A DNA stretch of 64,000 nucleotides from Candidatus Taylorbacteria bacterium RIFCSPLOWO2_01_FULL_48_100 (GCA_001821135.1 MHSA01000021.1:3956-67955); one strand, 5' to 3'; counted from the first letter of the stretch, positions 8,523-36,510 are shown. The notes: generated from the letters alone by a model not told the origin. Numbers and translations: made by a program.

Positions 8523-8652
8523 CTCTCGCCCTTATCCTAAGGGGGAGTACCACGAGCGGAGCGAGGGGGAGGGGGTGGTTTTTCTGTGGGAACAGAAGCA
8601 CCCCTCCGTCTCCCTACGGGAGACACCTCCCCTTATGTTAAGGGCAGGAGGT
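8523..8652 (+). repeat. GC-rich structured intergenic repeat, family R1 copy 1 (CTCGCCCTTATCCTAAGGGGGAGTACC…GAGGGGGAGGGGGT…ACCCCTCCGTCTCCCTACGGGAGACACCTCCCCTTA…GGCAGGAGG)
   Basis: About 130 bp and near-identical to copies at 21289-21410 and 26250-26376, and to a reverse-orientation copy at 36355-36510. It contains several internal hairpins (CCCTTA/TAAGGG, GGGGGAGGGGG/CCCCTCC, TCTCCC/GGGAGA). It lies between the convergent 3' ends of jag and the 8658-9875 gene. Confidence 0.7.
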
Positions 8653-8657
8653 AGTAG

Positions 8658-9875
8658 TTATAGTGCGAGAATCCACAGCGTTAAATCATTTTTGTTTTGG
8701 AAAAGAAGATACTGGTCGTCCGGACTGATGTCTACATTAAATACATCAATTTCTGTTCGTGCGATTTCCGAAAGATTTACAGCGAGGTCGGCGCGGCCGT
8801 CTTCCGCGTCAATTTTCCACACAGAATCATTCGTCTGCGCAGTTCCTTGATACCAGTTGTTTGGGAAACCATTCGGAAGCGCGTCGGGAACGGCGCACAA
8901 TGCAACTGCGCGGTTTTTCTTGCCCCACACGCACTTGTCTGCGAGCGTGGCGAGCCCGAGCGGCACGGTCTCCCCCCTAGTACGATTAAAGAGAGATAGT
9001 GTTGCACTAGATTCATTGCTAGTTGAGGACAGCACAACTGTTCCGCCTCGGCTTGGAAGCGCGGTAAGCCCAACGCCGCTTTCTACAACATCAAGCGCGC
9101 CGTTCTGCGCGCCGACGGCAAACAGATGTCCTGCCATGCCCGCCGAGGCACGCGTTGTTAGAAATATGGAGTCGTTCACCGGCCACACAGCGGCAAGATC
9201 TTTGAGCGGTAAATCAATAATCGTATTTTTGCGCGAGCCGTCCGGCGCGGCGAGTACGCCGCTTGCACCTGTTGCATTTTCAGAAAGGTAAAAAATGGTG
9301 TTGCCGGTCGGCGAAAAGGCGAGTGTGCGAATGTTGCGCGGAAGGAACGAGGCGCGCAGAGCATCGCCCTCACTCGCCGCCGCGCCGACGGTTGCATAAA
9401 AACTTTCAATATATTCCGTTCCCGCCGACTTTTTGTTATAGCGCACAATAACCCCAGAGCCGTCAGGTTTCCAGAGTGCCGCGCCTATTTCTGGAATTGT
9501 TTGATTAGAGATGCGGCGCGCCGTTCCTTCTTCCGCTCCGATTTCAAACAAATGCCCCGTGCCGCGCTCAGCGTAGCGCACGAGCGTTTGCCCTCCGCGC
9601 GAGAAAATCACTGCGCCCGCAACCGGCGTTTCTGTGAGTTGGCGTAAGCGAGGCAACTCGCCATCGCCAACACCAAGGTCTCCCGCATCTTCACCGCCAG
9701 TTCCCAAATCACCAAATCCACCAACCTCACCTGCTTCAGGAAATGCTCCACCCGTTTCTCCTCCGCTAGGTGTTGTTGCGCGCATAAAGAACCACCAATA
9801 CGCAAACGCACCCACTGCTACGACAAGCAGAACCGCAACACTACCCCATATTATTTTTTTGGTCTTGTTGAACAT
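8658..9875 (-). CDS. Hypothetical membrane-anchored protein with Gly/Asp-rich linker and a possible beta-propeller/TolB-like C-terminal domain
   Basis: N-terminal TM, Gly-rich acidic linker, then repeated beta-strand-like blocks. I did not recognise a precise family. Confidence 0.35.
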   Translation of the reverse strand: MFNKTKKIIWGSVAVLLVVAVGAFAYWWFFMRATTPSGGETGGAFPEAGEVGGFGDLGTGGEDAGDLGVGDGELPRLRQLTETPVAGAVIFSRGGQTLVRYAERGTGHLFEIGAEEGTARRISNQTIPEIGAALWKPDGSGVIVRYNKKSAGTEYIESFYATVGAAASEGDALRASFLPRNIRTLAFSPTGNTIFYLSENATGASGVLAAPDGSRKNTIIDLPLKDLAAVWPVNDSIFLTTRASAGMAGHLFAVGAQNGALDVVESGVGLTALPSRGGTVVLSSTSNESSATLSLFNRTRGETVPLGLATLADKCVWGKKNRAVALCAVPDALPNGFPNNWYQGTAQTNDSVWKIDAEDGRADLAVNLSEIARTEIDVFNVDISPDDQYLLFQNKNDLTLWILAL

Positions 9876-9881
9876 AAAGGT

Positions 9882-10955
9882 TTATGGAGGACAATTACCG
9901 CTTTCAAGCCCCCTCCCTTTCACATAAAGCGTTTTAGAATTAGGACATCGGATATAAAATGCAGTTTCTGTTTCTATATTAGTCATACGCTGTCTTAAAT
10001 CAATAGCTCGGTCATTTAATCCAGCCGTTTCCAGTTTTTCCGCGTCCTTTTCTACCTTGGCGCGCGCCGCCAGTAGCATTTGTGATACCGCCGCATTATT
10101 TGCCCCTACATCTTTATTGGCGATATTATAATCAACGCGCGGCAATCCACCCTGCCATGTCCAGTTGGTTGGATTTAATCTATCAAGCAACCCCGTCGGA
10201 ACTAAACAAGTCCCTCCTCCTTTCAAACATTTGTTAATCTGCGCTCGCATATCGGTAGACAACCAATCAACCGCCCCCTCGTAACTTCTCACCACCGTTT
10301 CTTTCGTTTTGATTTCTTGGAGTTTTGGCCTTAATGTATCAAGTTCTTCTTCCAATGCTGATAAGTTTGCGATTTCCTCAGGAGTAAAGTCGCCTTCACG
10401 AAATTTTCTATCCAGTTCTTTAACTCTTACATCAACAGCATCCCCTGCTATTTTTAGATCTTTCGCCTTCGTTGAAATGTTTTGAGCCCTCTGCAACGCT
10501 TCATCAAGAAACTTTCCATATGTATCCTCCACGCTTTGTATCCTCGTCTTTGTTACCGGATTGAGTTTTCCAATCGCGAGACCGATATCTACCAGACGCG
10601 GGTTGATGGTGTAAAGGAGCACATACGACGCGAGCACGGTCGCGAGCCCCCACACGACATTCATAATAACTCCCTTACTTTCGCTCTTGCCGCTCACTGC
10701 CTCCGTCGTCATATACTGGAACCCGCCCCACACGAGCATCAGCACGGCGAGAACTCCTGCGGCCCCTATTCCGAGTTTGTAAATCCCTGTGAGATATGTA
10801 GGGAGTGAAGTAGTTGTCTTTCCCAAATCAGTGATGTTTGGAAGTGGCGCAAGCGGTACATAATCAGTTTGCGCGAGCAACAGCGCAGGAATTACTAGCG
10901 TGGCAAGTGCGCATATTTCCACAAACATCGTTATTTTATACTGTACTTTTTTCAT
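9882..10955 (-). CDS. Hypothetical protein with a VirB2/TrbC pilin-like N-terminal region (signal peptide + two hydrophobic helices) and a long coiled-coil C-terminal domain
   Basis: Signal peptide (…ALLLAQTDYVPLAPLP), then two TM-like helices (GIYKLGIGAAGVLAVLMLVWGGF / VVWGLATVLASYVLLYTINP), then about 220 aa of coiled-coil-like sequence. The pilin-like topology is my inference only. It is the last gene of the T4SS-like locus. Confidence 0.3.
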   Translation of the reverse strand: MKKVQYKITMFVEICALATLVIPALLLAQTDYVPLAPLPNITDLGKTTTSLPTYLTGIYKLGIGAAGVLAVLMLVWGGFQYMTTEAVSGKSESKGVIMNVVWGLATVLASYVLLYTINPRLVDIGLAIGKLNPVTKTRIQSVEDTYGKFLDEALQRAQNISTKAKDLKIAGDAVDVRVKELDRKFREGDFTPEEIANLSALEEELDTLRPKLQEIKTKETVVRSYEGAVDWLSTDMRAQINKCLKGGGTCLVPTGLLDRLNPTNWTWQGGLPRVDYNIANKDVGANNAAVSQMLLAARAKVEKDAEKLETAGLNDRAIDLRQRMTNIETETAFYIRCPNSKTLYVKGRGLESGNCPP

Positions 10956-10965
10956 GTTGCTTTCA

Positions 10966-11075
10966 TACTAATATACTAATGCATACCAATCTACCAATGA
11001 CTACCAATAAAATTCGTTTCTTATTCGTAGACATTCGTATCATTAGTATAATTCGCAGATTAGTATTTATTAGTA
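10966..11075. repeat. TACGAAT-nonamer palindromic element (family R2), full copy
   Basis: Left arm of tandem ~9-nt units (catactaatatactaatgcataccaatctaccaatgactaccaataaa), a short spacer, then an inverted right arm (…attcgtagacattcgtatcattagtataattcgcagattagtatttattagtatc). It lies directly upstream of the ATG of 9882-10955 (start at 10955). Confidence 0.75.
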
Positions 11076-12035: not shown

Positions 12036-12376
12036 ACCTTTTTCGGCATTTTTATGCCGGTTTTATCTTCCAATTGTACCACAAGCACCGTGAGCGCGAC
12101 CCCAACCGTTATACAAGGCAATATATTGAGCACTGGAATCGCCTCAATAATCGCAGAGCCGAAAAACGAAGCCGCGCGCTTAGGGTTCACAAACCCTACT
12201 CCGCGGCTCAAAAACCAAAATCCAAATGTGAGGTACGCAATAATTGACACAAGCACGGCGAGCACTTGTCCCAATAAAGGGATAAGATTTAACCCAGCAT
12301 TTACGGCATCAAACAAAACAGCAACCGCAACCATAACAACGCCGGTTGTTTTATCAATTCTAATTTCTTGTTTCAT
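12032..12376 (-). CDS. Small three-TM membrane protein; start moved to MKQEIRID because the upstream Met lies inside the R2 repeat
   Basis: About 114 aa and hydrophobic. Part of the T4SS-like locus. Function unknown. Confidence 0.35.
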   Translation of the reverse strand: MKQEIRIDKTTGVVMVAVAVLFDAVNAGLNLIPLLGQVLAVLVSIIAYLTFGFWFLSRGVGFVNPKRAASFFGSAIIEAIPVLNILPCITVGVALTVLVVQLEDKTGIKMPKKV

Positions 12377-12383
12377 AGAAATT

Positions 12384-12490
12384 ATATATACCAATATACA
12401 AATGTATACCAATCTACAAATGGATACGAATAGGAACAGGAAATATTAGTAGTCATTCGTATAATTCGTATCATTGGTATATTGGTATTA
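12384..12490. repeat. R2 palindromic element, full copy; its right terminus (…ATTGGTATTA) supplies the TAA stop of the VirB4-like gene
   Basis: ataccaatatacaaatgtataccaatctacaaatggatacgaata…attcgtataattcgtatcattggtatattggtatta. The stop codon of 12488-14305 sits at 12488-12490, inside the repeat terminus. Confidence 0.75.
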
Positions 12491-14305
12491 CGCGCTTGCG
12501 CGCAATTCTTCTTTTGCGCGTTTAATCGCTAAGAGTTGCGACGGGTCGGAAGTGATAATCTGGTCTTCTGTGTAGGATGCAACAATTTTAATCGCGACAT
12601 GTTTCAGCCCGACGAAAAAGAGTCCCTCCCCCACATCCGATTCAAGCAAAAGATATTTTTCCTCATCGGTCAGGTTGAATACTTTTTGTATGCGGTCTAT
12701 CACTGCGGGTGATTGCTTCAGAAGCATTTGGATAGACGAGTTCGTTACAATCGGCAATCCATACGGAGAGGAAAGGAAATCGTCCACATCTTGCGTAATG
12801 GTCGCAACACCTAAAAAGTATTTGCGTCCGCGCTTGGCGACAGAAAGAAGAAATGAGGCGGTATCTTCCGAGCGCATCATCCACCACGCCTCATCCACGA
12901 CGAGGAGCCGTTTTTTGAGATTTCGGCGCACGGCGTTCCAGATGTGGTGTGTAACGATGTAAGTTGCGACCGATTTTAGTTCGTCTTCCATATCCCGAAG
13001 GGAAAATACGACAAGATTGCCGTTTATGGACACATTGGATGGGCGATTAATAAAGTTTGCCCAAGTGCCTTTTGTGTATTTGGTAAGCCGCACACGGATG
13101 CTCTCTGTCCCCTCCATTCCCGCAAGCACCATTTCAAAATCAGACAGAAGCGGCGGCTCGGTTTTCCCGAAGTCAGAATCAGGCGTAATGTCTTTAAGCG
13201 CGTAGGTCTCGGTAATCGCTCGGTCCACTAGTGCGTCTTCTTCCGGTGTAAGCCCGCCCAGCATTATGCGAAAAAGCCCGACGAGCGAGATAATGTGCGA
13301 GCGCAAAATGTCCGCAGGCGATTCATCCTCGCGCGGCAAAGGCAAGTCAAACGGGTTGATGTGGTGTTCGGAAGTGAGTGAGATGGAAAAGAACTTGCCG
13401 CCGACCGATTCCGCGAGAAACTCATACTCTTTTTCCGGGTCAATCACAATCACTTCCGTATCAAACATCAGTGTTCGTAAGATTTCCAATTTCATCATAT
13501 AGGACTTGCCGGCGCCCGACTTCGCAAAAACGACCGAGTTGTAGTTTTCCAGCGAGAAGCGGTCAAACAAAACAAGCGAAGAATTATGCCTATTTATGCC
13601 GTACAAGATTCCTTTGTCGGAAGTTAAGTCAAACGAAATGAATGGGAAAATTGAAGAAAGCGGTCCAGAATTAAGTTTAGAATGTACCAGAAGCTCGTCC
13701 GATGCTGTAGGCGCAACCGAACGAAACCCCTCCGCCTGCTGAAAGAGTGCCGGCTTCATATACACGAGTTTCGCTTCCATAATGGACTTCACTTCGCTCT
13801 CAATTTTTTCTAATTCTTCTTCTGTGTCTGCGTACAGCGTAATATATAATCCAACATCAAAAATCTTTTCTTGCGCCTGTTGCAGTTCATCGCGAAGCTT
13901 TTCCAAGTCCTGATACGCGGTCTCAAGCATCGGGTCGCGCACAAACCCTTTTTCTTCGCGCGTGTGGATTTGGCTCTGCACCTCCGCGACTTTTTTCTGG
14001 AACTGCTTCAGCACTTTTCCCGTTTCAACAGGATGTACGAAAATAGAGACATCAAACACTTTATCAAGATTTATAATCGGCGAAAACCAGCCGGCGGTTA
14101 GGAAGCGCGGATAGGAGATGACGAAATAGGTGCGAGCGATTTTCTCGCCCATATTGAGCGTCTTCGGCGTGATTTTGAGAGCCGCGGGCGCGAGCACATC
14201 GCGCAGTTCCAAAACCCCCGACTGGTAAATCTGTTCGGGCAGTATCGGCGTAATCTCGCTCTCGCCACTTTGTTTTTTCTTTTTGAATAGGTCTAGTATG
14301 TTCAT
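12488..14305 (-). CDS. VirB4/TraC/CagE-family type IV secretion ATPase
   Basis: 605 aa. Walker A FAKSGAGKSYMMK and Walker B LLVVDEAWWM (the DEAW motif characteristic of VirB4-like ATPases). Domain order is typical of VirB4/TrsE/PrgJ. Confidence 0.75.
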   Translation of the reverse strand: MNILDLFKKKKQSGESEITPILPEQIYQSGVLELRDVLAPAALKITPKTLNMGEKIARTYFVISYPRFLTAGWFSPIINLDKVFDVSIFVHPVETGKVLKQFQKKVAEVQSQIHTREEKGFVRDPMLETAYQDLEKLRDELQQAQEKIFDVGLYITLYADTEEELEKIESEVKSIMEAKLVYMKPALFQQAEGFRSVAPTASDELLVHSKLNSGPLSSIFPFISFDLTSDKGILYGINRHNSSLVLFDRFSLENYNSVVFAKSGAGKSYMMKLEILRTLMFDTEVIVIDPEKEYEFLAESVGGKFFSISLTSEHHINPFDLPLPREDESPADILRSHIISLVGLFRIMLGGLTPEEDALVDRAITETYALKDITPDSDFGKTEPPLLSDFEMVLAGMEGTESIRVRLTKYTKGTWANFINRPSNVSINGNLVVFSLRDMEDELKSVATYIVTHHIWNAVRRNLKKRLLVVDEAWWMMRSEDTASFLLSVAKRGRKYFLGVATITQDVDDFLSSPYGLPIVTNSSIQMLLKQSPAVIDRIQKVFNLTDEEKYLLLESDVGEGLFFVGLKHVAIKIVASYTEDQIITSDPSQLLAIKRAKEELRASA

Positions 14306-14309
14306 AAAA

Positions 14310-14421
14310 TATCTATACCAATATACTAATGATACGAATTATACGAATGACTACGAATAAAAATTCTTTGTTTACATTGGTAATCATTAGTAGATTGGTA
14401 TGCATTCGTATATTGGTATTA
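14310..14421. repeat. R2 palindromic element, full copy; its terminus supplies the TAA stop of the 14419-15045 gene
   Basis: taccaatatactaatgatacgaattatacgaatgactacgaataaa | aattctttgtttac | attggtaatcattagtagattggtatgcattcgtatattggtatta. It lies directly upstream of the VirB4-like start at 14305. Confidence 0.8.
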
Positions 14422-15045
14422 AGCAACTGCCGCGTGCTGTTCCTCGCCAGGGTTAAATAATTTATAAAACAATTCTATTTCCTCGTCTGTGCCGAGTCGC
14501 GCGGTGCGGAGACCGCACCTCGTCAGCCCCTGCTCTACGATAGAAATGCGTTGTTCAATCTGAGTTCTATTTTCGTTGAAGTCGCTCGTTGCCGCGGCGG
14601 GCGTTTGGTTTTTACGCCTGAGCCCTATCGGCAGCCCACCTTTGAGTTTCACTGGTGTAGGCGAATACGGCACGACTATGAAAAATGTTTTGGACATAAT
14701 AGCCGTGCTTTCCGTAAACGAGCGCACAAACTCTATATACTCGCGCGTCTGAATTTTTAGAAGTTCCGTCTGTTGCGCCTTCACGCGCGTTTCAAGAAGC
14801 GCGATGTAGGGTCTGACATCAAACCGCCGCGAGTGAATAACGATTTGTGCAGAAAAGTCCAGCGTGTTCAAGAAGTTTTGGAATTGCAAAAGAATCGCCT
14901 CTTGATTGTCTTCTGATTTCAGCGCGAAGTTGACGGAAGACACCATAAGAACAGCGCGCAGCCCACCATCGCGTAGGACGAGTATGCCGTCGCGAATTTC
15001 CGAAATCGGCACAAATTCCTGAGTTGGTTTTGTTTTTGGAGGCAT
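14419..15045 (-). CDS. Hypothetical soluble protein; its N-terminal region resembles the N-terminus of the adjacent VirB4-like protein
   Basis: 208 aa with no TM. The block PISEIRDGILVLRDGGLRAVLMVSSVNFALK parallels PEQIYQSGVLELRDVLAPAALKITPK in the VirB4-like ORF. It may be a VirB4 N-domain-like accessory protein. I cannot name a family. Confidence 0.4.
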   Translation of the reverse strand: MPPKTKPTQEFVPISEIRDGILVLRDGGLRAVLMVSSVNFALKSEDNQEAILLQFQNFLNTLDFSAQIVIHSRRFDVRPYIALLETRVKAQQTELLKIQTREYIEFVRSFTESTAIMSKTFFIVVPYSPTPVKLKGGLPIGLRRKNQTPAAATSDFNENRTQIEQRISIVEQGLTRCGLRTARLGTDEEIELFYKLFNPGEEQHAAVA

Positions 15046-15048
15046 AAA

Positions 15049-15100
15049 GTAAATATACGAATATACAAATTATACGAATGATACGAATGTCTACGAATAA
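15049..15100. repeat. R2 element, left arm only
   Basis: atatacgaatatacaaattatacgaatgatacgaatgtctacgaataaaa. It lies immediately upstream of the 14419-15045 start. The matching right arm is at 15493-15540, with the GxxExxY gene between the two arms. Confidence 0.7.
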
Positions 15101-15107: not shown

Positions 15108-15524
15108 TCATAATTTTATCTGTCGTATTCGCTCAATCCGCACGATTCTTCGTGGTTTAAGTAGTTTTTCACGAAAATTCACCAACAAACCAAGCCGCAA
15201 CTCAGTTTGTTGTAAGTAATTTTGGATTTGCCTAAAATCCTCTCTTAATAATAGCCGTTTTGCTTTTAATTCCAAAACGACCTGATTCTCTATAAGAAAA
15301 TCAAGGATGTTACCTCCGGTTCCGATGGCTAATTCTCTTTTGTAGTTTATATTTTTTTCTTTAAGATATTTCTCTATTGCATCAGCGTACTGTTTTTCTC
15401 TTGCATACTCGCCGAGTTCATTATGTGCAGCAAAACATATGCCAGTGAGTATGTATGAAAGTTCCGGAAACAGTAGTACTGGCTTTTTGTTCCTATTAGT
15501 AGACATTAGTAGATTAGTATTCAT
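15108..15524 (-). CDS. GxxExxY-family protein (the four-helix-bundle family typical of 23S rRNA intervening sequences)
   Basis: The sequence …PELSYILTGICFAAHNELGEYAREKQYADAIEKYLKEKNINYKRELAIGTGGNILDFLIENQVVLELKAKRLL…FRQIQNYLQQTELRLGLLVNFREKLLKPRRIV matches the GxxExxY / TIGR04256-like pattern well. The annotated N-terminus (MNTNLLMSTN…) is a translated R2 repeat, so the true start is uncertain. Confidence 0.65.
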   Translation of the reverse strand: MNTNLLMSTNRNKKPVLLFPELSYILTGICFAAHNELGEYAREKQYADAIEKYLKEKNINYKRELAIGTGGNILDFLIENQVVLELKAKRLLLREDFRQIQNYLQQTELRLGLLVNFREKLLKPRRIVRIERIRQIKL

Positions 15525-15540
15525 TCGTATATTGGTATTA
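15493..15540. repeat. R2 element, right arm only
   Basis: ctattagtagacattagtagattagtattcattcgtatattggtatta. Together with 15049-15100 it forms one palindrome interrupted by the GxxExxY gene. Confidence 0.7.
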
Positions 15541-15945
15541 CTATTTTCTGGTGGTGGTATGCGAAATGTCCAGCGTCCATGTTAAGTCCTTCAACTTTCC
15601 TTCCGTCAATTTTGGAATAGTCGGCGGGTTCGTGTTTTGCGCAGGACTTTTCGCGGATGGCGCGCGCGGCACTTTACGCCATAAGTACAATTTTTCCGAC
15701 AAGTAATAGCGGATGGCGGATTCAAGCACAAAAACAAACGGCTTGTTGTTTATTTTCCAAAACGCGAGCGCGAGCGCGAGCGCGGCGACTGGCGCAATAA
15801 TGAGAATTGCGACGATAAACGGCAAGAAGCGGTAGAGAATAAAAGAAAGCCCCGCTCCGCCGACAAGGTAAATGAACTGCTTGACGGTGAGCGGTCCAAA
15901 CAGGCGGTCTTCTATGTCTATAAATTGCGGGGTTTGATAACGCAT
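15541..15945 (-). CDS. Small two-TM membrane protein, possibly VirB3/PrgI-like
   Basis: 134 aa. A hydrophobic hairpin (…LVGGAGLSFILYRFLPFIVAILIIAPVAALALALAFWKI) followed by a hydrophilic tail. It lies adjacent to the VirB4-like gene, as VirB3/PrgI genes usually do. Assignment rests on topology and context only. Confidence 0.3.
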   Translation of the reverse strand: MRYQTPQFIDIEDRLFGPLTVKQFIYLVGGAGLSFILYRFLPFIVAILIIAPVAALALALAFWKINNKPFVFVLESAIRYYLSEKLYLWRKVPRAPSAKSPAQNTNPPTIPKLTEGKLKDLTWTLDISHTTTRK

Positions 15946-15952
15946 ATGCGTT

Positions 15953-16062
15953 TTATACCAATATACTAATGTTACTAATGATACGAATGTCTACGAATAA
16001 AAAATCTCTGTTTCCATTTGTAGTCATTGGTAGATTGGTATGCATTCGTATATTGGTATTAT
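15953..16062. repeat. R2 palindromic element, full copy; supplies the TAA stop of the 16059-17138 ORF
   Basis: ataccaatatactaatgttactaatgatacgaatgtctacgaataaaa | aatctctgtttcc | atttgtagtcattggtagattggtatgcattcgtatattggtatta. Confidence 0.8.
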
Positions 16063-17138
16063 TCTATTGGCTCACGATAAGGGTCTTTTGGATAATTACT
16101 CTGTGTTGATGTTGATTGTGGCGAATAATTTGGCGCGGCAATCGGCAAGTTTTTCGGCGGTTCGGTGGTTGGTGCAAATCGGTACTTACCTTCTGTTTTT
16201 TGTTCCTGTTCTTTCCCCGTCTTATTTGTAGCCATTTGTAGATTAGTATTCATTCGTATATTGGTATTCATATTTCTCAAAATCTCCCGCACTGGCCGCA
16301 AAATCTCCATATTCACCACTTGTCCAACCGCCATCGCGCGGTCGCGCGGTAGGCGCAAGCGGCGCGTGAGGTTGTCTACAAAATTCACCGGCTGTGTTAG
16401 CCCCAACATAACAAGCCCCGCCTCGCTCACCAATTCTCCCGTTTCTTCCACATTTAACCCGAACTTTTTCGCCACTCCTTCAAGACGAGATAAAAACCCA
16501 ACGCTCTCCAGCGACTGCTTCACTTCAATCGGCGTTTTGCGGAACGCGTCGTTTATTCGGTTGTCGTCGTACGCAGTGCCACGTTTGATATCGGAGAGAA
16601 GAGTTTGTAGCGTATAGCGTGTAGCGTGTAACGTAGATTCGGGGGGAGTGGGTAATTCTTTGCGGATGAGAACGGGGCGAGGAGGGGCTGGGGGTAAGTT
16701 GGTAAGTTTGGAAGTTTGTAAGTTGGGTGGCGTAGTAGTTGGTTTTGTTTCTGTTTTATTCGTAGACATTCGTAGATTAGTATTCATTCGTATATTGGTA
16801 TTAATATTGGTATTAAAAATCTCTTTTTCAACTTCCCCCGCAATCGCCCGCGCCTGCTCGGGCGGCAATAATAATTCACTCGCGAATTCGTTTTCTGCTT
16901 GTTTTGTGTCAATGATCTGTAGAAGTATTGCGCCTACTATGTAATTAAACTTTACTCGCTGTTCTTTTGATAGATTATGTTTTTCTGCAACACGAACAGT
17001 CGCCGCTGTTGCTTCTGGCGAAGTAATATAATCCTGCGTATCTTGCGGTAATTTTTTTAACGCCCTTATTTTTTCTTCGTTTGTAAATTTCATATTTTTA
17101 TTATACCCAGAGCGTTGCATTGACTGGATTTGAAACAT
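16059..17138 (-). CDS. Uninterrupted 359-codon frame that runs in-frame through two R2 half-elements; either one protein with repeat-encoded NTNIRMNTNL(R/Q)M segments or 2-3 small genes separated by repeats
   Basis: The translation contains NTNINTNIRMNTNLRMSTNK and NMNTNIRMNTNLQMATNK exactly where R2 half-copies lie (16757-16815 and 16233-16270). The first 13 codons overlap the VirB6-like gene, so the real start is probably MKFTNEEK… near 17093. Confidence 0.3.
   Translation of the reverse strand: MFQIQSMQRSGYNKNMKFTNEEKIRALKKLPQDTQDYITSPEATAATVRVAEKHNLSKEQRVKFNYIVGAILLQIIDTKQAENEFASELLLPPEQARAIAGEVEKEIFNTNINTNIRMNTNLRMSTNKTETKPTTTPPNLQTSKLTNLPPAPPRPVLIRKELPTPPESTLHATRYTLQTLLSDIKRGTAYDDNRINDAFRKTPIEVKQSLESVGFLSRLEGVAKKFGLNVEETGELVSEAGLVMLGLTQPVNFVDNLTRRLRLPRDRAMAVGQVVNMEILRPVREILRNMNTNIRMNTNLQMATNKTGKEQEQKTEGKYRFAPTTEPPKNLPIAAPNYSPQSTSTQSNYPKDPYREPIE
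16233..16270. repeat. R2 element, right-arm half copy embedded in a coding frame
   Basis: catttgtagattagtattcattcgtatattggtattca. Confidence 0.6.
16757..16815. repeat. R2 element, right-arm half copy embedded in a coding frame
   Basis: ttattcgtagacattcgtagattagtattcattcgtatattggtattaatattggtatta. Confidence 0.6.
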
Positions 17139-21410: not shown

Positions 21411-21415
21411 AAAAT

Positions 21416-26215: not shown

Positions 26216-26243
26216 AGAAAAATCCCCCAGCGGGGATTTTTCT
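26216..26243. terminator. Bidirectional intrinsic-terminator-like hairpin (aaaaatcccccagcggggatttttct)
   Basis: A perfect 6-bp GC stem with an A-run on one side and a T-run on the other. Nearly identical in form to the hairpin at 49229-49250. Confidence 0.4.
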
Positions 26244-26249
26244 GTGTTT

Positions 26250-26376
26250 CCTCTCGCCCTTATCCTAAGGGGGAGTACCCGAGCGAAGCGAGGGGGAGGG
26301 GGTCGTTCCCGCAAAACCAAATCCACCCCTCCGTCTCCCTACGGGAGACACCTCCCCTTAAGTTAATGGCAGGAGG
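26250..26376 (+). repeat. R1 GC-rich structured repeat, copy 3
   Basis: cctctcgcccttatcctaagggggagtacccgagcgaagcgagggggagggggtcgttcccgcaaaaccaaatccacccctccgtctccctacgggagacacctccccttaagttaatggcaggagg. Confidence 0.7.
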
Positions 26377-26384
26377 AAAAAATA

Positions 26385-28370
26385 CTACCTCCCACCAAAA
26401 AACGCCTTCACAAACCCCCACACATCTGATTCTGGAATGCCTGCGCCGGCAAGTTGTTGAGAAATACCGATGAATGCTCCGGCTTTATACACAATTTCTT
26501 TGGAAACAGATGATGAACAGTTGTCTGTTTCGGTTCCAATACAGAGGCGGAAGTAGTATGAGCCGACGCCAGCAGTCCATGTGTGGGAGACGGTCTGTGT
26601 TCCGCCTGCGGCAAGATTAGCAATCGGGCCGACATTTGCGCTGAAGTCATACCAATTTGCGTTGTTAGATGAGTATTGGAATCGCGCTGGAACTGAGGAA
26701 GTGAGCGCGCCTCCACTGTTTGATACAGTTGAGGTAAGTGTCAGTTGTCCCGCGTAAAGCTTCCCTTCTGTCGCATCTTCTCCTGATATGCTAGGCGTGC
26801 TTGCGTTTAGTTTTGGTGAAGCGGTAGTTGTTGTCGGTGTTGTTGTGGCGGTTGTTGTGGCGGTTGTTGTGGCGGTTGTTGTGGCGGTTTTTGTTGGAGC
26901 TGTTGTTGTTGGTTGCGTAACATTCACCGTTACTGTGTCGGATGCCGTTGCGCTACCGCCATCTTGTTTACAGGTAACTGCATATGTTTTAGAAACAGTC
27001 GCAGTAGTGCGAATCGCCCCAGTCGCTTCCCCAGTTACATCTCCATTACACTGTTCAATCTTTCCAGTGGTTGTATATGAAAGCGCAATCGCTGTTCCAG
27101 CCGCTACTGTTATTGGGCCGTCGCTTGGAATGCTGTTGTTTGTGTATGCTTTGAGGTCTACGGTAATGGGGCTTGCTGGGGCGGTGATGGTGAAGTAGGA
27201 GTCGCTTTCGTCGAAAGCGGCATAAGTGTTTTTCTGCATATTGGAGCAATAGAGGTCAGAATTTGATTGCGGACAAAGTCCGATTTGTAATTTGTAATTG
27301 CCAGTTCTTTGTGCTTCCGGTATTCTCCACTGATAATTTGTTATCCCGGGCGAGAATATCTCCTGACCTAGACCGACAGAAAAATATCCGTCTGGGCCGA
27401 GTAAATTAAGTACAAATTTGTATCCTGCTGATGCCCCTCTCCAAGAAATTGTCTGTGTGGAACCTGTCTGCCAACTCTCTCCCCCATTCGGACTCAACAC
27501 AGTAATACTCGGCTGCGCGGAGGTGGCGGGGGCAGATGAATATATCGTGAATCTACCACCACTGATAGGAAGCGACCCACTTACAGAAGCGGATGTCCTA
27601 ATGGCAACAACTCTAACTGAAAATTCCTTACCATCATATTGACTTATATTAGGGGCCATAACTACACCAAAAGTGAAAACTTGTCCTTCATCAGGGATAA
27701 AACCGGAATAAAGCGCCACCGCTTGATTATTGGTATTGAACGGAATAGGGACAATTGGACCAGATGGTATTGGTGCCACTGTGGTGGAGTAGTTGGAATT
27801 TTCTGGGAAGATAACTACACCAGCAAATGCGTTACGAGGTGCTGTACCAGTTAACTCTAGAACAAAACCTTCAATTTTTTGTAATGGCTTACCACTACTT
27901 TTCAAGGTGATATGGGTTGTCCTAACTGCTGTTCCACTCGCAATGTTTTCCATAGTAGAATTCATTGCTGGAGAAACCTGAATCTCTGTTTGTGTCACCG
28001 GAATCGGCGCGGTAACCGTTGCCTGTCCCGACACATTTACCACCACACTATCATCATCGCGCTCGCCTTCTTTGTTGATGCACGCGACTTTAATAACTGC
28101 GGAACGGCTAATGCGCCCGGCGACTGTGCCCGACAATTTAATATCATTTTTAGACCAATTGCCTCGGCATCGGCTTGCGCCTTCTGATATCCAACTCACG
28201 ACAATGCGACTTCCTTTCTCTACAGTAACAGGCCCATCCTGCCCGTTCACTTTCATATCTACCGACACCGTCTCAAATATATTCTCAAACCCGACATCCT
28301 GCGCCTTTGCGACTGCAACAAACGCAAACACTGCAATACCGACTGCGCCGACATAAAGGAGTTTCCTCAT
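26385..28370 (-). CDS. Large secreted/cell-surface protein with a Thr/Ala-rich linker encoded by a 12-bp tandem repeat
   Basis: Signal peptide MRKLLYVGAVGIAVFAFVAVAKA. Internal TTTAPTKTATTTATTTATTTATTTPTTTT linker encoded by (GTTGTTGTGGCG)x4 at about 26839-26886. The N-terminal ~90-aa domain is paralogous to the C-terminus of the fragmented gene at 31654-32973. Confidence 0.5.
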   Translation of the reverse strand: MRKLLYVGAVGIAVFAFVAVAKAQDVGFENIFETVSVDMKVNGQDGPVTVEKGSRIVVSWISEGASRCRGNWSKNDIKLSGTVAGRISRSAVIKVACINKEGERDDDSVVVNVSGQATVTAPIPVTQTEIQVSPAMNSTMENIASGTAVRTTHITLKSSGKPLQKIEGFVLELTGTAPRNAFAGVVIFPENSNYSTTVAPIPSGPIVPIPFNTNNQAVALYSGFIPDEGQVFTFGVVMAPNISQYDGKEFSVRVVAIRTSASVSGSLPISGGRFTIYSSAPATSAQPSITVLSPNGGESWQTGSTQTISWRGASAGYKFVLNLLGPDGYFSVGLGQEIFSPGITNYQWRIPEAQRTGNYKLQIGLCPQSNSDLYCSNMQKNTYAAFDESDSYFTITAPASPITVDLKAYTNNSIPSDGPITVAAGTAIALSYTTTGKIEQCNGDVTGEATGAIRTTATVSKTYAVTCKQDGGSATASDTVTVNVTQPTTTAPTKTATTTATTTATTTATTTPTTTTASPKLNASTPSISGEDATEGKLYAGQLTLTSTVSNSGGALTSSVPARFQYSSNNANWYDFSANVGPIANLAAGGTQTVSHTWTAGVGSYYFRLCIGTETDNCSSSVSKEIVYKAGAFIGISQQLAGAGIPESDVWGFVKAFFGGR

Positions 28371-28550: not shown

Positions 28551-29237
28551 TTATTTCAGCCCGAGCAGATTTTTTGCAATTCGCGGCACTTCAGCGCGAA
28601 AATAGCTTTTTATATCCTCCCATGTCATGTCAAAAAAGAGCGTGGGCATAAGGTCGTTTTCCGCATCATCAAAATAAGTCATGCTTTTTATGATGTGGTG
28701 ATAGTTATGCGCCACCGTAGGATACTGACGCGGCAACTTTTCAACGACTGATTCAAGCGGCGCGACATTGTTTGCATACCAGTACAAATCCACAAAATCG
28801 CGCTTGCGTCCGCGCTGGCTCATTGCGATAATTTTCATTACGGCGATGTCGTCTTTATCAAGAACGGCAACCGCCCCATATTTCAATGGTGGCACCACAG
28901 GGACAAAAAATGGATATGCGATAAAACTAATTTTTGCTTTACAAAGCGTCCCGTACACCGTTCCTTCTTTTACGATTTTGCCCTGCCAGATGCGATTGTC
29001 TGGAAAATGCCGTGTTATTTCGGCTGGAGCGAAGGTTTTCTCTTGCGTAAAGAAATCAAGGTCAACCGATTGCCGATGCCCAACTTGGAGCGCGAGCGCG
29101 GTTCCGCCAGCAAGATACCATTTTTCTTCTTCAAGCCAGGATTCTTTGCGCGCATACTCAAGAGCTTTTTGCGTTGACCGCGGAAGCGCTTCAAGTTTTG
29201 GCGTCCATTCGTTCATGTTGATAGCATTAAATTCCAA
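28551..29237 (-). CDS. Predicted nucleotidyltransferase (Pol-beta-superfamily minimal NTase motif; AbiEii-like toxin candidate)
   Basis: YLAGGTALALQVGHRQSVDLDFF fits the hG[GS]…DhD NTase signature. It is paralogous to 31035-31652. Its start overlaps the small upstream ORF. Confidence 0.4.
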   Translation of the reverse strand: MEFNAINMNEWTPKLEALPRSTQKALEYARKESWLEEEKWYLAGGTALALQVGHRQSVDLDFFTQEKTFAPAEITRHFPDNRIWQGKIVKEGTVYGTLCKAKISFIAYPFFVPVVPPLKYGAVAVLDKDDIAVMKIIAMSQRGRKRDFVDLYWYANNVAPLESVVEKLPRQYPTVAHNYHHIIKSMTYFDDAENDLMPTLFFDMTWEDIKSYFRAEVPRIAKNLLGLK

Positions 29238-30754: not shown

Positions 30755-31045
30755 ATGAAAGAGAACAGGGGCGTTTTTATACAAAACAAATTACCCAATT
30801 CATTTCGTCCGCTTTTGTGGTCCTTAAAATGGGAGGATGTGGATGTTGACAAAGATAAAAGTGATATTATTCTCGCCGCTGTTAATGAGGGAACTCTTGA
30901 ACAATGGCGCTGGATTATTAGAATGTATGGGCGGGAAGCAATACGGGAAACGCTTGCGAATCGTCTTGCTACAGAATTTCATCCAGAATCCGGTAACTTA
31001 GCAAAAGTTGTCTTTGACTTGCCGAAATTATCATATGCACGATGA
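30755..31045 (+). CDS. Small 96-aa protein paired with the second NTase (paralog of 29213-29452)
   Basis: Same conserved pattern as the other small partner. Directly precedes and overlaps the second NTase ORF. Confidence 0.3.
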   Translation: MKENRGVFIQNKLPNSFRPLLWSLKWEDVDVDKDKSDIILAAVNEGTLEQWRWIIRMYGREAIRETLANRLATEFHPESGNLAKVVFDLPKLSYAR

Positions 31046-31652
31046 GGTTTTAACAAAGTCCGCGGCGGCGCTTCTTCCGTCAATTGTTCGTTTTAGTGAT
31101 TTCTACCTTGCCGGCGGTACGGCGCTCGCCTTACAGATTGGACACAGGCGTTCGGTTGATTTTGACTTGTTTTCAGAAAAAACGCTTCCCGCAGAATTGC
31201 TCCCGCGTGTAAAGCGCGTATGCGCCCCACTGTCAGTTGTTGTTACATATAGTTCTACGGAACAACTCAATGTTCTTATCGGCGGCGTTAAGACGACCTT
31301 TTTGTTTTTTCCTTACCCGGTTATTAATCCGCCAGTCGCGTATCGCGGTATTTCAATCGCGAGCATACGCGAAATTGCCGCAATGAAAGCATTTGCGGTC
31401 GGCAAGCGGCTCTCGTTCAAGGATTATGTTGATTGGTATTTTATGTTGAAAGAAAAATATGTAACGCTTCCAGATGTTATAGCTCTCGCTCAAAAGAAAT
31501 TCGGCGGCGATTTCAATGACCGGCTGTTTCTCGGGCAACTCGTGTCGCTTGCCGATGTTCCTATTCAGTCAATAGATTTCTTGCGCGCCGCGGTTGATAA
31601 AAAAGAAATCACGGAGTTTCTTGAGTATTCTGTAAAGACATTCGCACTCTAA
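31035..31652 (+). CDS. Predicted nucleotidyltransferase, paralog of 28551-29237
   Basis: YLAGGTALALQIGHRRSVDFDLF. The start was moved to MHDEV… because the track's upstream Met overlaps the partner gene. Confidence 0.4.
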   Translation: MHDEVLTKSAAALLPSIVRFSDFYLAGGTALALQIGHRRSVDFDLFSEKTLPAELLPRVKRVCAPLSVVVTYSSTEQLNVLIGGVKTTFLFFPYPVINPPVAYRGISIASIREIAAMKAFAVGKRLSFKDYVDWYFMLKEKYVTLPDVIALAQKKFGGDFNDRLFLGQLVSLADVPIQSIDFLRAAVDKKEITEFLEYSVKTFAL

Positions 31653-32973: not shown

Positions 32974-32977
32974 ACAT

Positions 32978-33535: not shown

Positions 33536-35113
33536 TTACTGATTGATTATTTGTTTTGGACGGTACGAAAGCGCTTCCAAAATATCGTCCTCCGTTACTT
33601 CATCGCGCTCGGCGAGGTCGGCGATTGTGCGTGCGAGTTTCATCACGCGGTGGTATGAGCGCGCAGAGAGGTCCAACCGTCGCGCGTTTGCGTTCAGCAT
33701 TCCTTTTGTTTTTTCATCAAGCGGGATTATTCTTGCAATATGTTTGGCGGGCGTGTCCGCGTTGGTCTTTGCTTTCAGTTTCGCCTTCTTAAATCGTTCT
33801 TCTTGTCGCTTCCGCGCCGCAATAACGCGCTCCCGCACTTCTTTTGACTCCGAACCATCACGCGCTTCGTCCGAAAGCTTTCCGTACTCAACGGCAGACA
33901 CTTCAATCGCGAGGTCAATGCGGTCAATCACTGGCCCAGAAATCTTCCTGCGGTAGCGCTCCGCGGCGTTAGCTCCGCAAACGCACGATTTTCCTTTTAC
34001 ACCCTTGTTTCCGCACGGGCACGGGTTCATTGCCGCAATCAAGATAAAATGCGCCGGAAAATGTGCAGAGCCCCGTGCGCGCGAAACCGAAATCATCCGC
34101 TCCTCAAGCGGCTCGCGGAGCGTGTCTATCACGCGCCGGTCAAATTCCGGAAACTCATCTAGAAACAAAACGCCTCGGTGCGCGAGCGTTGCTTCACCCG
34201 GCTTTGGAATCGCGCCTCCGCCAGTGATGGAGACATATGAAGATGTGTGGTGTGGGCTGCGCACGGGTGGGTGCGACACAATCGTATCGCGAAGCTTCCC
34301 CGCGACGGAATGTATGCCCGTCACTTCCAGCATTTCTTGAAACGAAAGCGGCGGGAGGAGCCCCGCAAACGCTTTCGCAAGCATTGTCTTACCTGTGCCG
34401 GGCGGGCCCCATAGCAGAATGTTGTGTCCGCCCGCCGCCGCAATTTCCAGCCCGCGCTTCGCGGTTTCCTGTCCTTTGATATCCGACAAATCAATTTGCG
34501 CTTCGGGTGGTTCGTCGGGAATCGCGGTCTCGTGGACTTGCTTCAGCGCGCGTTTTTTTACAAATGGTGTCTCATCTCCGTCTCCCGCAAGGTCTTTGGG
34601 TATAAGGTGTGCGATAACGGCAGTTAAAGTCGGTGCTGCGTACACTTGTATCCCCCGAATAAGCGCGGCTTCGCGCGCATTCCCTTGGGGTACAAATACT
34701 TCTTCAAAATCGCGCTTGCGCGCTTCTTCTACAAGAGGAAGTACACCCGCGACTGGTCTTAGCTCTCCGTCAAGCGAGAGTTCTCCTAGAAAGAGTTTCT
34801 TTTCAGGCGCAAAGCGAATTGCACCTACCGCTTTGAGGTACGCGAGTGCAACGGGCAAGTCAAACGCAGGTCCTTCTTTCTTGAGGTCTGCAGGTGCGAG
34901 CGAAATCGTTACTTTTTGGTTTTTCTGCTTTGGCGACTTGAAGCCGCTATTCTTTATCGCTGCAGAAACGCGGTCGCGAGATTCTTCAACCGCTTTGTCT
35001 GGAAGCCCTACGACGGAAAACGAATGGAGCCCGCCAGCAATGTCCGCTTCAACAGATATGAGATGGGGAGTGAGCAGATGCGTTTCGGCACTCCATACTT
35101 TGGCGAAACTCAT
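33536..35113 (-). CDS. comM: Mg-chelatase-like AAA+ protein YifB/ComM
   Basis: 525 aa. N-terminal Lon-like domain, Walker A LLWGPPGTGKT, C-terminal Mg-chelatase subunit ChlI pattern. Confidence 0.85.
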   Translation of the reverse strand: MSFAKVWSAETHLLTPHLISVEADIAGGLHSFSVVGLPDKAVEESRDRVSAAIKNSGFKSPKQKNQKVTISLAPADLKKEGPAFDLPVALAYLKAVGAIRFAPEKKLFLGELSLDGELRPVAGVLPLVEEARKRDFEEVFVPQGNAREAALIRGIQVYAAPTLTAVIAHLIPKDLAGDGDETPFVKKRALKQVHETAIPDEPPEAQIDLSDIKGQETAKRGLEIAAAGGHNILLWGPPGTGKTMLAKAFAGLLPPLSFQEMLEVTGIHSVAGKLRDTIVSHPPVRSPHHTSSYVSITGGGAIPKPGEATLAHRGVLFLDEFPEFDRRVIDTLREPLEERMISVSRARGSAHFPAHFILIAAMNPCPCGNKGVKGKSCVCGANAAERYRRKISGPVIDRIDLAIEVSAVEYGKLSDEARDGSESKEVRERVIAARKRQEERFKKAKLKAKTNADTPAKHIARIIPLDEKTKGMLNANARRLDLSARSYHRVMKLARTIADLAERDEVTEDDILEALSYRPKQIINQ

Positions 35114-35217
35114 AATACTAATATACGAATTATACTAATGATACGAATGACTACTAATGCTTCGTAATCTTTATTCGTATCCATTGGTAGATTGGTATTC
35201 ATTTGTATATTGGTATT
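35114..35217. repeat. R2 palindromic element, full copy; upstream of the comM start, and supplies the TAA stop of the dksA-like gene
   Basis: aatactaatatacgaattatactaatgatacgaatgactactaatgcttcgtaatctttattcgtatccattggtagattggtattcatttgtatattggtattta. Confidence 0.75.
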
Positions 35218-35582
35218 TATGCATTCATATGCTTCTTACAGGTCGTTGCCGCTGGGTTCGCCTCTAGGCGTTCGTTCTCTATAATCTCTTTCCCCTTTTC
35301 GCAGAGCCCATAGGTGCCGTTTTTAATCCGTTCAAGAGCCGCCTGTACTTCGTTGTAGCGAATTTCCAATTGTTTAAGAATTGCTGTATTACCCTCAAAT
35401 GCTTCTAAACTGTCGGCGAGTTCTGTTTCGTCTGCGGTGAGCGTATCCATTTTTTCCGGAGTCGCTTGCCAGTCGCTCGGATTGTCGGGGTTTTTGCGCC
35501 CAACGCCTTTTAATTCCGCTTCAACAATCGCAAGTTCCGATTTTAATTTTTCCTCAAAATGTTTTACTGTTTTTTTGTCCAT
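35217..35582 (-). CDS. DksA/TraR-family zinc-finger-like protein
   Basis: 121 aa with coiled-coil N-terminus and a C-terminal …GTYGLCEKGKEI… region. Resembles DksA/TraR, though the Cys4 motif is degenerate. Confidence 0.45.
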   Translation of the reverse strand: MDKKTVKHFEEKLKSELAIVEAELKGVGRKNPDNPSDWQATPEKMDTLTADETELADSLEAFEGNTAILKQLEIRYNEVQAALERIKNGTYGLCEKGKEIIENERLEANPAATTCKKHMNA

Positions 35583-35626
35583 AGTCGTGTAAGAGTATTA
35601 TAACAAGAAATAATATGTCAAGCACC

Positions 35627-36340
35627 TTACTGGGGCGCTGCAACTAACTTGTCCATTATTTTCTCAAATGAATCCTCGTCGTTTGTTATTATTATTGTCT
35701 TTTTATCTGCAAATCCGTAAAGTAACAATGGTTTATCGTCTGTGCCGATAAGTTCGCGAATATCGCGGTTTCTAATGGTACGGTCTGTAAAATTCACCCC
35801 TCCTATTGCCTCGCCAAACAAGGGCCCAATATCGCCAAGTATTGTTTTTTCCCACTTTAACATTCCCGCAAGCGCGGTTTGGTAGTAATTTGTTTTAAAA
35901 ACAAGGAACGCGCGGTTGGTTGGAAGCCCGCGAAGCCCAAGCGCAAATTGCGGCTCCAGCGCACGAACAAAACCACCTTCCGTGCTCGCATTTAAAAGCG
36001 ACAAAAATTCTTGCGCCGTGAGCGCGCGTTCCATCGCTTCTCCTTCAGCGCTTCGCGCGGCTTTTGTTGGCGTAATGAGTGTGAAAGACGAAAGCGCGAG
36101 CGCGGCTTCGCGCTCTCGCGCAAAAGCAGTTATAAAGGTATCCCGTACAAGACGGGACGAGTCAAGCGTTTTTTCTCTATCTGCAAGAATTATTTTTGTC
36201 ATTCCGGAAATGGTCGGTGTATTTTCGGCGGCAGGCAAATTAGAAAAATACCAATATCCGATTCCAATCGCTCCAGCAAGAAACAAAAACACAACGCTCC
36301 ACAACACAAGCGAACGCGCGCTTTTACGCATCAGTTCCAT
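35627..36340 (-). CDS. Single-pass membrane protein, hypothetical; start set at MELMRK because the upstream in-frame extension runs through an R1 repeat
   Basis: TM LVLWSVVFLFLAGAIGIGYWYF followed by a ~200-aa soluble domain. The track ORF extends to 36685 through the R1 copy, which I judge unlikely to be coding. Confidence 0.4.
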   Translation of the reverse strand: MELMRKSARSLVLWSVVFLFLAGAIGIGYWYFSNLPAAENTPTISGMTKIILADREKTLDSSRLVRDTFITAFAREREAALALSSFTLITPTKAARSAEGEAMERALTAQEFLSLLNASTEGGFVRALEPQFALGLRGLPTNRAFLVFKTNYYQTALAGMLKWEKTILGDIGPLFGEAIGGVNFTDRTIRNRDIRELIGTDDKPLLLYGFADKKTIIITNDEDSFEKIMDKLVAAPQ

Positions 36341-36354
36341 TTGCGGTAAAGGAA

Positions 36355-36510
36355 TTGAGATTTTTACATCCCCTCCTGCCTGAGGAGGGGTGCCGAGTCC
36401 GCGAGGCGGGGTGGTGGGAGGGTTTTGCAGAGAAACCACCCCCTCCCCCCTCGCTTCGCCCGCCTGCGCAGGCAGGCTCGTGGTACTCCCCCTTAAAAAA
36501 GGGCGAGAGG
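36355..36510 (-). repeat. R1 GC-rich structured repeat, copy 4 (reverse orientation)
   Basis: The reverse complement reads cctcttacctctcgcccttttttaagggggagtaccacgagcctgcctgcgcaggcgggcgaagcgagggggagggggtggtttctctgcaaaaccctcccaccaccccgcctcgcggactcggcacccctcctcaggcaggagggg. Confidence 0.65.

Follow-up and report, generated by a model that had tools for sequence, protein, structure and literature searches.

Introduction

[quoted passage not shown] Some REPs have been reported to stall ribosomes near stop codons. RPEs represent the in-frame insertion of a palindromic repeat into protein-coding genes, and truncated, REP-like derivatives have been described for QMITE2 (PMC10969869). The clade 'VSR, DUF559, DUF2726' includes a homing endonuclease of a group I intron (PMC3424549). 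Here we analyse a 64-kb stretch of Candidatus Taylorbacteria bacterium RIFCSPLOWO2_01_FULL_48_100 (MHSA01000021.1:3956-67955; the window), which carries four copies, named c1 to c4, of a GC-rich hairpin repeat, R1. Each copy combines two ~55-nt units as an inverted doublet, unit A being followed by a variable spacer and an inverted unit B. R1 is probably a selfish, non-autonomous DNA repeat with a palindromic build, akin to REP/BIME-REPIN elements or MITEs, and it may be acted on via DUF559.

Four palindromic R1 copies in the window

A profile hidden Markov model of c1-c4 matches only four sites in the 64 kb, at 8521-8653, 21287-21411 and 26248-26378 on the forward strand and at 36363-36512 on the reverse strand, with E-values of 1e-31 to 1e-38. 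These are exactly the places at which an earlier note on this DNA had listed copies, all of which are present in the sequence. Every site also matches its own opposite strand, which shows R1 to be palindromic. A 23-nt R1 core is found three times in the window at three or fewer mismatches and in none of 100 shuffles. A structural regular-expression scan of the window revealed no cryptic further units, returning only the A arms of c1-c3 and one false positive (0-1 matches in the shuffle control). The GC content of the copies (0.60-0.64, against 0.468 for the window) bears out the contrast with the surroundings that had been remarked on before.

The order of modules within a unit is a hairpin, H1, a linker of 2-4 nt, a second hairpin, H2, and a G-rich tail, GGGAGGGGGT. 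H1 has the form CTCGCCCTTA-loop-TAAGGGGGAG with a conserved G.G mismatch, and follows the pattern CTC(G/C)CCC..loop..GGGGGAG. In the left arm (unit A) the linker is TAC(C) and H2 is near-invariant (CCGAGCGAAGCGAGG), consisting of a GC-GAA-GC mini-hairpin with a GAA triloop that is extended via tandem G.A mismatches. In the inverted right arm (unit B) the linker is GTG, and H2 varies in sequence while its pairing is kept. Unit A's G-rich tail and unit B's C-rich tail' pair with one another across the variable spacer, and the two ends of R1 form ~25-nt imperfect terminal inverted repeats, (TTWC)CTCYYGCCCTT... The element is therefore an imperfect palindrome of five hairpin modules, H1-H2-central-H2'-H1', rather than three stems around a variable centre as the earlier note had described it. 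The description of the copies as near-identical holds for the left arms of c1-c3 (89-93% identity) and fails for full copies (58-85%), the right arms being of two types, c1/c3 versus c2/c4. R1 units also occur singly, in direct tandem and in the opposite pairing.

The arms begin 5-9 nt past stop codons at c1, c2 and c3. In c1, unit A (8523-8578, +) comprises H1 at 8525-8547 (CTCGCCCTTATCCTAAGGGGGAG), the linker TACC(A), H2 at ~8550-8566 (CCACGAGCGGAGCGAGG) and the G-rich tail at 8567-8578; it starts 9 nt past the jag stop codon (8511-8513). The variable central spacer (8579-8599, +) has a small hairpin of its own, TTCTGT..ACAGAA, and is followed by the inverted unit B (8600-8652, -), with the C-rich tail' ACCCCTCC, H2' at 8608-8624 (GTCTCCCTACGGGAGAC) and H1' at 8627-8651, which ends 6 nt from the stop codon (8658-8660) of a convergent gene of 405 aa. 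Unit A of c2 (21289-21342, +) is made up of H1, TACC, CCGAGCGAAGCGAGG and GGGAGGGGGT, and its inverted unit B (21358-21410, -), with an H2' of the tandem G.A type (GCCTCGCGGACTCGGC), ends 5-6 nt from the stop codon (21416-21418) of a 328-aa gene. Similarly, c3 consists of unit A (26250-26305, +) and an inverted unit B with H2' GTCTCCCTACGGGAGAC (26324-26376, -), and ends 8 nt from the stop codon (26385-26387) of a 661-aa gene. On the reverse strand, c4 has its unit A at 36436-36510 (-), into whose H2 a hairpin of 18 nt (6 codons), CCTGCCTGCGCAGGCGGG, is inserted at 36459-36476, and an inverted unit B with a truncated H1' at 36372-36413 (-). The right end given earlier for c4, 36510, thus stands, and the left end moves from 36355 to ~36372.

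The hairpins covary and fold equally well on both strands

Predicted forward-strand RNA folds of c1-c3 reach -62.7 to -70.1 kcal/mol, with z of -4 to -7, and the complementary strand folds equally well (-62.8 to -65.2 kcal/mol); the predicted fold of c4 is at -81.5 kcal/mol. In a MAFFT alignment of full R1 copies H1 was too shifted for pair counting, and an anchor-defined, loop-masked alignment of H2 was used instead. The B-type H2 segments were set solely by the flanking anchors GGAGGT..GGAGGGG, which gave 19 distinct sequences and 17 distinct rows after loop masking. In the outer seven pairs, 79.8% of cells are standard pairs compared with 56.8±3.1% after shuffling (0/500), and 29 cells are changed on both sides compared with 11.6±2.4 (0/500). 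Compensatory changes are found in six of the seven pairs, slid controls of the pairing give 29-47%, and the unpaired cells are mostly G.A/A.G tandems. H1 covaries between lineages as well, from CCCTTA/TAAGGG in the candidate phyla radiation (CPR) to CCCCCC/GGGGGG in high-GC hosts. The check for compensatory changes that the earlier note had proposed thus comes out in favour of the stems, and the absence of covariation, which it had named as the outcome that would speak against the element, is not what is seen.

Cells with G.T and with A.C among the B-type H2 segments number four and one, too few to demonstrate a strand bias. The most frequent H2 loop is the C-GNA-G triloop. Such triloops are a hallmark of unusually stable DNA mini-hairpins, among them d(GCGAAGC), which Hirao and colleagues reportedly described. 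The C-GNA-G loops are a hint, and no proof, of a hairpin that forms at the DNA level.

R1 is gained, lost and inverted at orthologous sites

The c1 site is empty in related loci (L068-L072; Jag 85% identical), where jag and the convergent 405-aa gene meet stop to stop in CTATAA (..TCACTATAATTTC..), and R1 is absent from 20 kb of synteny in these relatives. The window has 144 nt between these genes, ~130 nt of which are R1, and the C-termini of both proteins differ from those of the relatives. The c2 site holds the full doublet in the window, a single variant unit in L075 (88% identical) and a degenerate version in L076 (69%), and Parcubacteria GWA2_47_12 (86%) has an empty site there. Among strains no polymorphism was seen at c2, the arrangement being identical in at least 24 contigs. 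At the c3 site, a locus from a related metagenome-assembled genome (MAG), L066, also has an element, one that points the other way and whose H2 differs (TCCGACTTTAGTCGGA). R1 has been gained, lost and inverted at the DNA level.

Insertion that is polymorphic between relatives is also a feature of a classical MITE, that is, an internally deleted derivative of an insertion sequence (IS) with a DDE transposase, moved in trans through its terminal inverted repeats. The ~25-nt imperfect terminal inverted repeats, the size of 120-140 bp, the lack of a coding gene and the existence of truncated REP-like derivatives (cf. QMITE2 in the review PMC10969869) all agree with such an origin for R1. However, neither of the two resolved sites (c1 and c2) has a target-site duplication, no IS with matching ends was found in about 80 loci, nor any DDE IS, and the neighbouring genes include no common transposase. 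Single units and direct tandems are, moreover, frequent, and a mechanism acting through terminal inverted repeats does not predict them. We therefore regard a classical MITE as very unlikely.

R1 is neither a terminator nor a strand-specific RNA

The covariation of the hairpins, the very stable predicted folds (z -4 to -7), the position of the arms 5-9 nt past the stops at c1, c2 and c3, and the presence of genes for PNPase and RNase Y in the window would all be consistent with R1 being primarily a structured RNA of the 3' untranslated region (UTR), serving as a terminator, a barrier to 3' exonucleases or a ribosome staller near stops. Yet a T-run, as in an intrinsic terminator, does not follow R1 on either strand at any of c1-c4. 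At c3, a canonical bidirectional terminator-like hairpin lies outside R1, at 26216-26243, and c3 sits between it and the stop codon of the 661-aa gene (26385), so R1 is not the terminator there; a terminator scan of this region places its predicted site beside c3 and none within it. The orthologous site in L066 likewise has the R1 element and then a terminator hairpin of its own.

Other observations also count against an RNA function as the primary one. The two strands fold equally well, and orientation relative to the transcript varies among copies and orthologous sites, c1 being sense to jag, and c2 and c3 lying antisense to the genes beside them. Copies lie within coding regions, and R1 is absent at the same genes in close relatives. 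None of the Rfam covariance models matches R1 at gathering score, and relaxed thresholds bring up only tRNAs and miRNA-hairpin matches that are spurious. That C-GNA-G triloops, a feature of stable DNA mini-hairpins, are the most frequent H2 loops also points away from RNA. On this evidence a primarily structured RNA is unlikely, and R1 behaves as unstable or mobile DNA, and neither as a strand-specific RNA nor as a terminator or a small-RNA gene. Of the two readings put forward earlier, the REP-like element is the one that gains, with stems that covary and an element that is present in other genomes, and the structured RNA, terminator or stabiliser loses, at least as the primary nature of R1, on account of the equal folding of both strands, the variable orientation, the missing U-tract, the lack of an Rfam match and the sites that are empty in relatives.

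In-frame copies within protein-coding genes

The fourth copy had been taken to lie between an open reading frame (ORF) fragment and a membrane-protein gene, fused into a coding frame by the ORF caller. Instead, c4 is inside one genuine gene (35627-36685, -) for a membrane-anchored protein of 352 aa, as 15 orthologues (53-83% identical) cover 94-100% of this ORF on both sides of c4. The copy encodes ~50 linker residues (about residues 57-107; ..TSRPFLRGSTTSLPAQAGEARGEGVVSLQNPPTTPPRGLGTPPQAGG..) without a stop codon, and the 18-nt hairpin insertion that only c4 has is of a length divisible by three. The orthologues share an N-terminal motif, PRIRTYERDVEEFMK..AEQERRI, a linker that varies, a transmembrane helix and a C-terminal domain. 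Four of them (P0003, P0006, P0007 and P0013) have the same-frame peptide SRPF[LI]RGSTPSE[AT]RGEGV and further orthologues read different R1 arms or frames, which indicates that the linker of this protein is largely built from the repeat. In a second case, in L003, a half unit (unit A alone) lies in frame within the Mur_ligase_C domain of a complete MurD-like ligase gene. Both genes thus show in-frame insertion of the RPE type, and R1 accounts for unusual stretches rich in G/R/P/S, and for extended N-termini, among predicted proteins.

A single reading frame, SRPFLRGST.., is common to c4, four orthologues and the MurD insert, as would be expected if R1 were a recurring protein-coding module, a peptide cassette. 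The location of c1-c3 effectively refutes such a cassette, since these copies are intergenic and occur in either orientation. Other orthologues read other frames or arms, GC-rich sequence is poor in stops in any case, and the H1 loop varies in length, which shifts the frame between modules. We therefore reject the cassette as next to untenable.

R1-type units in other genomes

A search for R1 in other genomes, which had been suggested as a check, was run with two patterns. The lineage-specific pattern matches three other CPR MAGs, and a shorter core pattern matches 60 metagenome loci of 43-71% GC. A scan of viral contigs with the core pattern gave no matches, and blastn of the unit gave one marginal match against plasmids and none against phages. 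Conservation extends past the bases that the pattern required, to the G-rich tail, to H1 and in many loci also to the inverted B unit. The 60 loci include single units, direct tandems spaced by 51-138 nt, and A-B' doublets. High-GC loci encode aconitase, CheA and cytochrome c, and two of them belong to Actinobacteria RBG_16_68_21 and an Acidimicrobiia genome. Literature searches with R1 core strings returned nothing relevant, and none was found on repeats of CPR bacteria or Saccharibacteria.

The 328-aa protein beside c2 has a 100% identical counterpart in a Candidatus Taylorbacteria MAG (RIFCSPHIGHO2_02_FULL, locus tags A3C08; Parcubacteria, CPR). Proteins of the low-GC loci L005, L035, L036, L048 and L058 are likewise identical to those of the A3C08 MAG, which assigns these loci to the population genome of the window. 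Together with their contig-mates L030 and L057, the five loci hold at least six R1-type sites beyond the four in the window.

Several unit ends place a strong Shine-Dalgarno-like GGAGG or GAGGGGG 5-13 nt before the start of the next gene (L066 10260-10345, which equals L076 3842-3899; L005 ~500; L012 ~5700; L058 ~8010), and a C-rich segment lying upstream in L066, CCACCCCCTC, could sequester this Shine-Dalgarno-like sequence. Some R1-type copies may thus have been co-opted for translation initiation or its control. A general role of the tails or right ends as Shine-Dalgarno or anti-Shine-Dalgarno mimics was considered and dropped, as the pattern is inconsistent and only some copies place GGAGG 5-13 nt before an ATG.

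R1-type units are associated with DUF559 genes

Clustering neighbouring ORFs all-versus-all returned redundant contigs as its top clusters and missed the gene that a Pfam search later found, DUF559 (PF04480), embedded among units in L029. With tblastn, DUF559 genes were also found adjoining units in L038 and L030. The latter locus is part of a 116-kb contig that also includes L035, and the DnaJ encoded in L035 has an identical counterpart in the A3C08 Taylorbacteria MAG. The DUF559 gene of L030 (164-514; Pfam E 2.8e-31, PDB 3hrl E 2e-14) has R1-type units on both sides, two of which match the B arm of c1 at 28/28 and the A arm at 29/30 positions. The ORF-sized segments flanked by units encode YbjN, an MFS protein, a nucleoside hydrolase and DUF559, and no transposase.

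We further note that DUF559 genes from three other phyla have units beside them. The sample comprised nine genes in annotated records of Pseudomonadota, Deinococcota and Cyanobacteriota, namely those of Azospirillum, Sphingomonas, Sinorhizobium, E. coli (ycjD), Neisseria gonorrhoeae, three Deinococcus species and Synechocystis. Each of the nine has a [C-rich tail'][H1] immediately upstream of the ORF, or an H1-type unit immediately downstream of it, or the two together, the clearest cases being bracketed on both sides. In Deinococcus psychrotolerans, a ~45-nt inverted repeat exactly brackets the DUF559 ORF between paaD and paaZ, and a 50 kb control stretch contains solely the two units that bracket this gene. 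The units are physically associated with DUF559 genes. The literature library that was searched has no paper connecting DUF559 with flanking hairpin repeats.

The Deinococcus arrangement is a compact cassette of ~440 bp (L085/L086 24358-24794, corresponding to 298357-298793 of the D. psychrotolerans plasmid NZ_CP034185.1; also L078 and L081) in a phenylacetate operon, with perfect ~45-nt inverted repeats in the order C-rich tail and H1 ... H1 and G-rich tail. It has the look of a selfish gene that was inserted as a discrete block. Where inverted units bracket a DUF559 gene, as in L030, L078, L081 and L085, the bracketed gene could represent the autonomous form, but the orientation of the units around these genes differs from that in R1. 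In E. coli (L083), ycjD is followed by a unit of C-rich tail and H1, TCACCCTCACCCCAACCCTCTCCCTGAAAGGGCGAGGGGG. A 211-nt query spanning the 3' end of ycjD and this unit gave one match per genome in 3327 of 5426 complete E. coli genomes, so the unit appears to be single-copy and apparently immobile there.

The recurrence of DUF559 beside units also bears on whether R1 is a true REP/REPIN, mobilised by a RAYT, the IS200/IS605-like HUH Y1 transposase. The organisation is the same as in REP/BIME (singlets, inverted doublets and clusters), target-site duplications are missing, the hairpins have conserved flanks, and a GTAC tetranucleotide is present at the foot of H1 on the complementary strand. This tetranucleotide is, however, neither GTAG nor CGTC, the linkers being TAC(C) or GTG. 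No Y1_Tnp or RAYT is found among the scanned ORFs of the window or beside unit clusters, and the gene that does recur there encodes DUF559. Mobilisation of R1 by a RAYT is thus most improbable.

Discussion

Read as a selfish palindromic DNA repeat, R1 would be gained, lost, flipped and reshuffled at the DNA level and tolerated where it does little harm, a few nt from stops, between convergent genes and in 3' UTRs before the true terminators, and also as in-frame, stop-free inserts in protein linkers. The likeliest mechanism is that its units form hairpins or cruciforms which would be acted on in trans by DUF559, a Vsr-like PD-(D/E)XK endonuclease, much as RAYT acts on REPs. The hairpins would then act as single-stranded or cruciform DNA. 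Transcribed copies might also affect mRNA ends, and influences on mRNA stability or on stop-codon translation, if there are any, would be secondary. A more far-reaching proposal, to which we give less than even chances, is that the unit is the cis-acting partner of DUF559, and that the two make up a nuclease-plus-hairpin-repeat system found in four phyla, analogous to REP-RAYT and based on PD-(D/E)XK. In such a system DUF559 may recognise the conserved mismatches in the extruded hairpins, namely the G.G in H1 and the tandem G.A in H2.

Several points weigh against a repeat of this kind. Copy-and-paste to non-homologous sites is not accounted for by a nuclease on its own, and neither a DUF559 gene (by tblastn) nor a transposase gene is present in the window. 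The arrangement of units around DUF559 varies, with tails outward in Deinococcus and mixed in L029 and L030. The comparisons of filled and empty sites at c1 and c2 reveal no target-site duplication, and no defined target sequence of R1 emerged. Covariation leaves RNA and DNA undistinguished and would fit an RNA function too. Ascertainment contributes to the identity of the core across phyla, since 24 of its bases were prescribed by the search pattern. Finally, the sequences come from metagenome assemblies, in which repeats are prone to misassembly, yet the c2 region is reproduced in at least 24 contigs.

If the unit and DUF559 do form such a system, the near-identical A unit in Candidatus Taylorbacteria and Actinobacteria MAGs would mark recent DNA exchange between an ultra-small bacterium and its free-living neighbours or hosts; at least one Actinobacteria MAG with the A unit is from the same RIFLE-series sediment and groundwater datasets. 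The unit is a sequence marker common to CPR bacteria and Actinobacteria, and could be used to trace such exchange. DUF559/YcjD, a large orphan family of E. coli, Neisseria, Deinococcus, cyanobacteria and CPR bacteria with a structure (3hrl) and no known function, would gain a testable substrate. The link between DUF559 and the units suggests a second, mechanistically different counterpart to the REP-RAYT relationship. In addition, R1 shows that the tiny genomes of CPR bacteria carry an active repeat that remodels gene ends and protein linkers in an RPE-like manner.

Other sequence features of the window

The genes of the window include dnaN-dnaA, rnpA-yidC-jag, a type-IV-secretion-like cluster, uvrD, PNPase and RNase Y. 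A second and far more abundant repeat family consists of arrays with four to six copies of an 8-9-nt motif, (A/C)TAC(G/C/T)AAT(G/T), usually as inverted pairs around a centre of 10-20 nt. The arrays are intergenic, many of them between type-IV-secretion-like genes, and lie at 10953-11070, 12376-12491, 14303-14426, 15043-15100, 15479-15545, 15943-16066, 16208-16274, 16742-16808, 23393-23447, 24209-24329, 35103-35223, 49550-49751 and 58044-58180. They are possibly operator or iteron arrays. Similar tandem heptamers (CGAATTG x4, CGAAGTA x3) stand beside R1-type units in the high-GC loci L056 and L034.

Clusters of the repeats AATGTCCTTTA and TAAAGGACATT, both direct and inverted, flank the gene for a CCA-adding enzyme at 40408-40586 and 41973-42117, and this gene adjoins a tRNA cluster at 42526-43373. 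A conserved leader precedes a TrbL-like gene of 721 aa, at 21196-21265 (-) in the window and at 9600-9690 in L074, 2890-2970 in L075 and 11100-11180 in L076. It consists of TATAAT(A/G)TAGGCACGGAAGACG, a hairpin, and then GCGAATTATG with the start codon; the hairpin differs wholly in sequence among the four relatives with its pairing always kept, and may be a small cis-regulatory structure. Within the 661-aa gene that ends beside c3 (26385-28370, -), a 12-nt tandem repeat, GTTGTTGTGGCG, is present about six times at 26815-26910 as an in-frame coding microsatellite in a dockerin-like surface protein. Two ORFs for nucleotidyltransferase toxins of the AbiEii type (type IV toxin-antitoxin/abortive infection), at 28551-29237 (-) and 31008-31652 (+), flank a LysM-M23 peptidase gene. 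The second of these matches the N-terminal part of the domain alone and may be a fragment.

Comparison with known systems

R1 resembles the REP/BIME/REPIN and RAYT systems of Enterobacteria and Pseudomonas. Both have short GC-rich hairpin units that are found singly, in inverted pairs that make a long foldback and in mosaic clusters where two unit types alternate, and both are extragenic, often between convergent genes or just past stops, and lack target-site duplications. In both cases, a single-copy nuclease gene is flanked by units. R1 differs from REPs in having two hairpins and a G-rich tail (~55 nt) without a GTAG/CGTC tag, and in an associated gene that encodes a Vsr-like PD-(D/E)XK DUF559 nuclease rather than an HUH Y1 transposase. 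The R1 core is common across phyla whereas REPs are lineage-specific, and R1 has in-frame coding copies as well.

With RPEs, R1 shares palindromes of ~100-150 bp that are found in small-genome bacteria, both in frame and stop-free in unrelated genes and between genes. It differs from RPEs in being GC-rich and modular, with mostly intergenic copies, an associated nuclease gene and a CPR host, and the two are not known to be related in sequence. Prokaryotic MITEs (Correia/CREE, ERIC, RUP, Nezha and QMITE) resemble R1 in their size of 100-200 bp, terminal inverted repeats and long hairpins, in their intergenic or 3'-UTR location, and in their presence/absence polymorphism and truncated derivatives. 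R1 is unlike them in that no target-site duplication is seen, no parent IS was found, and it often occurs as single arms or direct tandems. The enzyme encoded beside the units clearly belongs to the DUF559/YcjD/Vsr-like endonucleases (PDB 3hrl), and its action on hairpin-repeat substrates is a putative one here; the DUF559 clade already holds one selfish member, the group I intron homing endonuclease (PDB 3r3p; PMC3424549).

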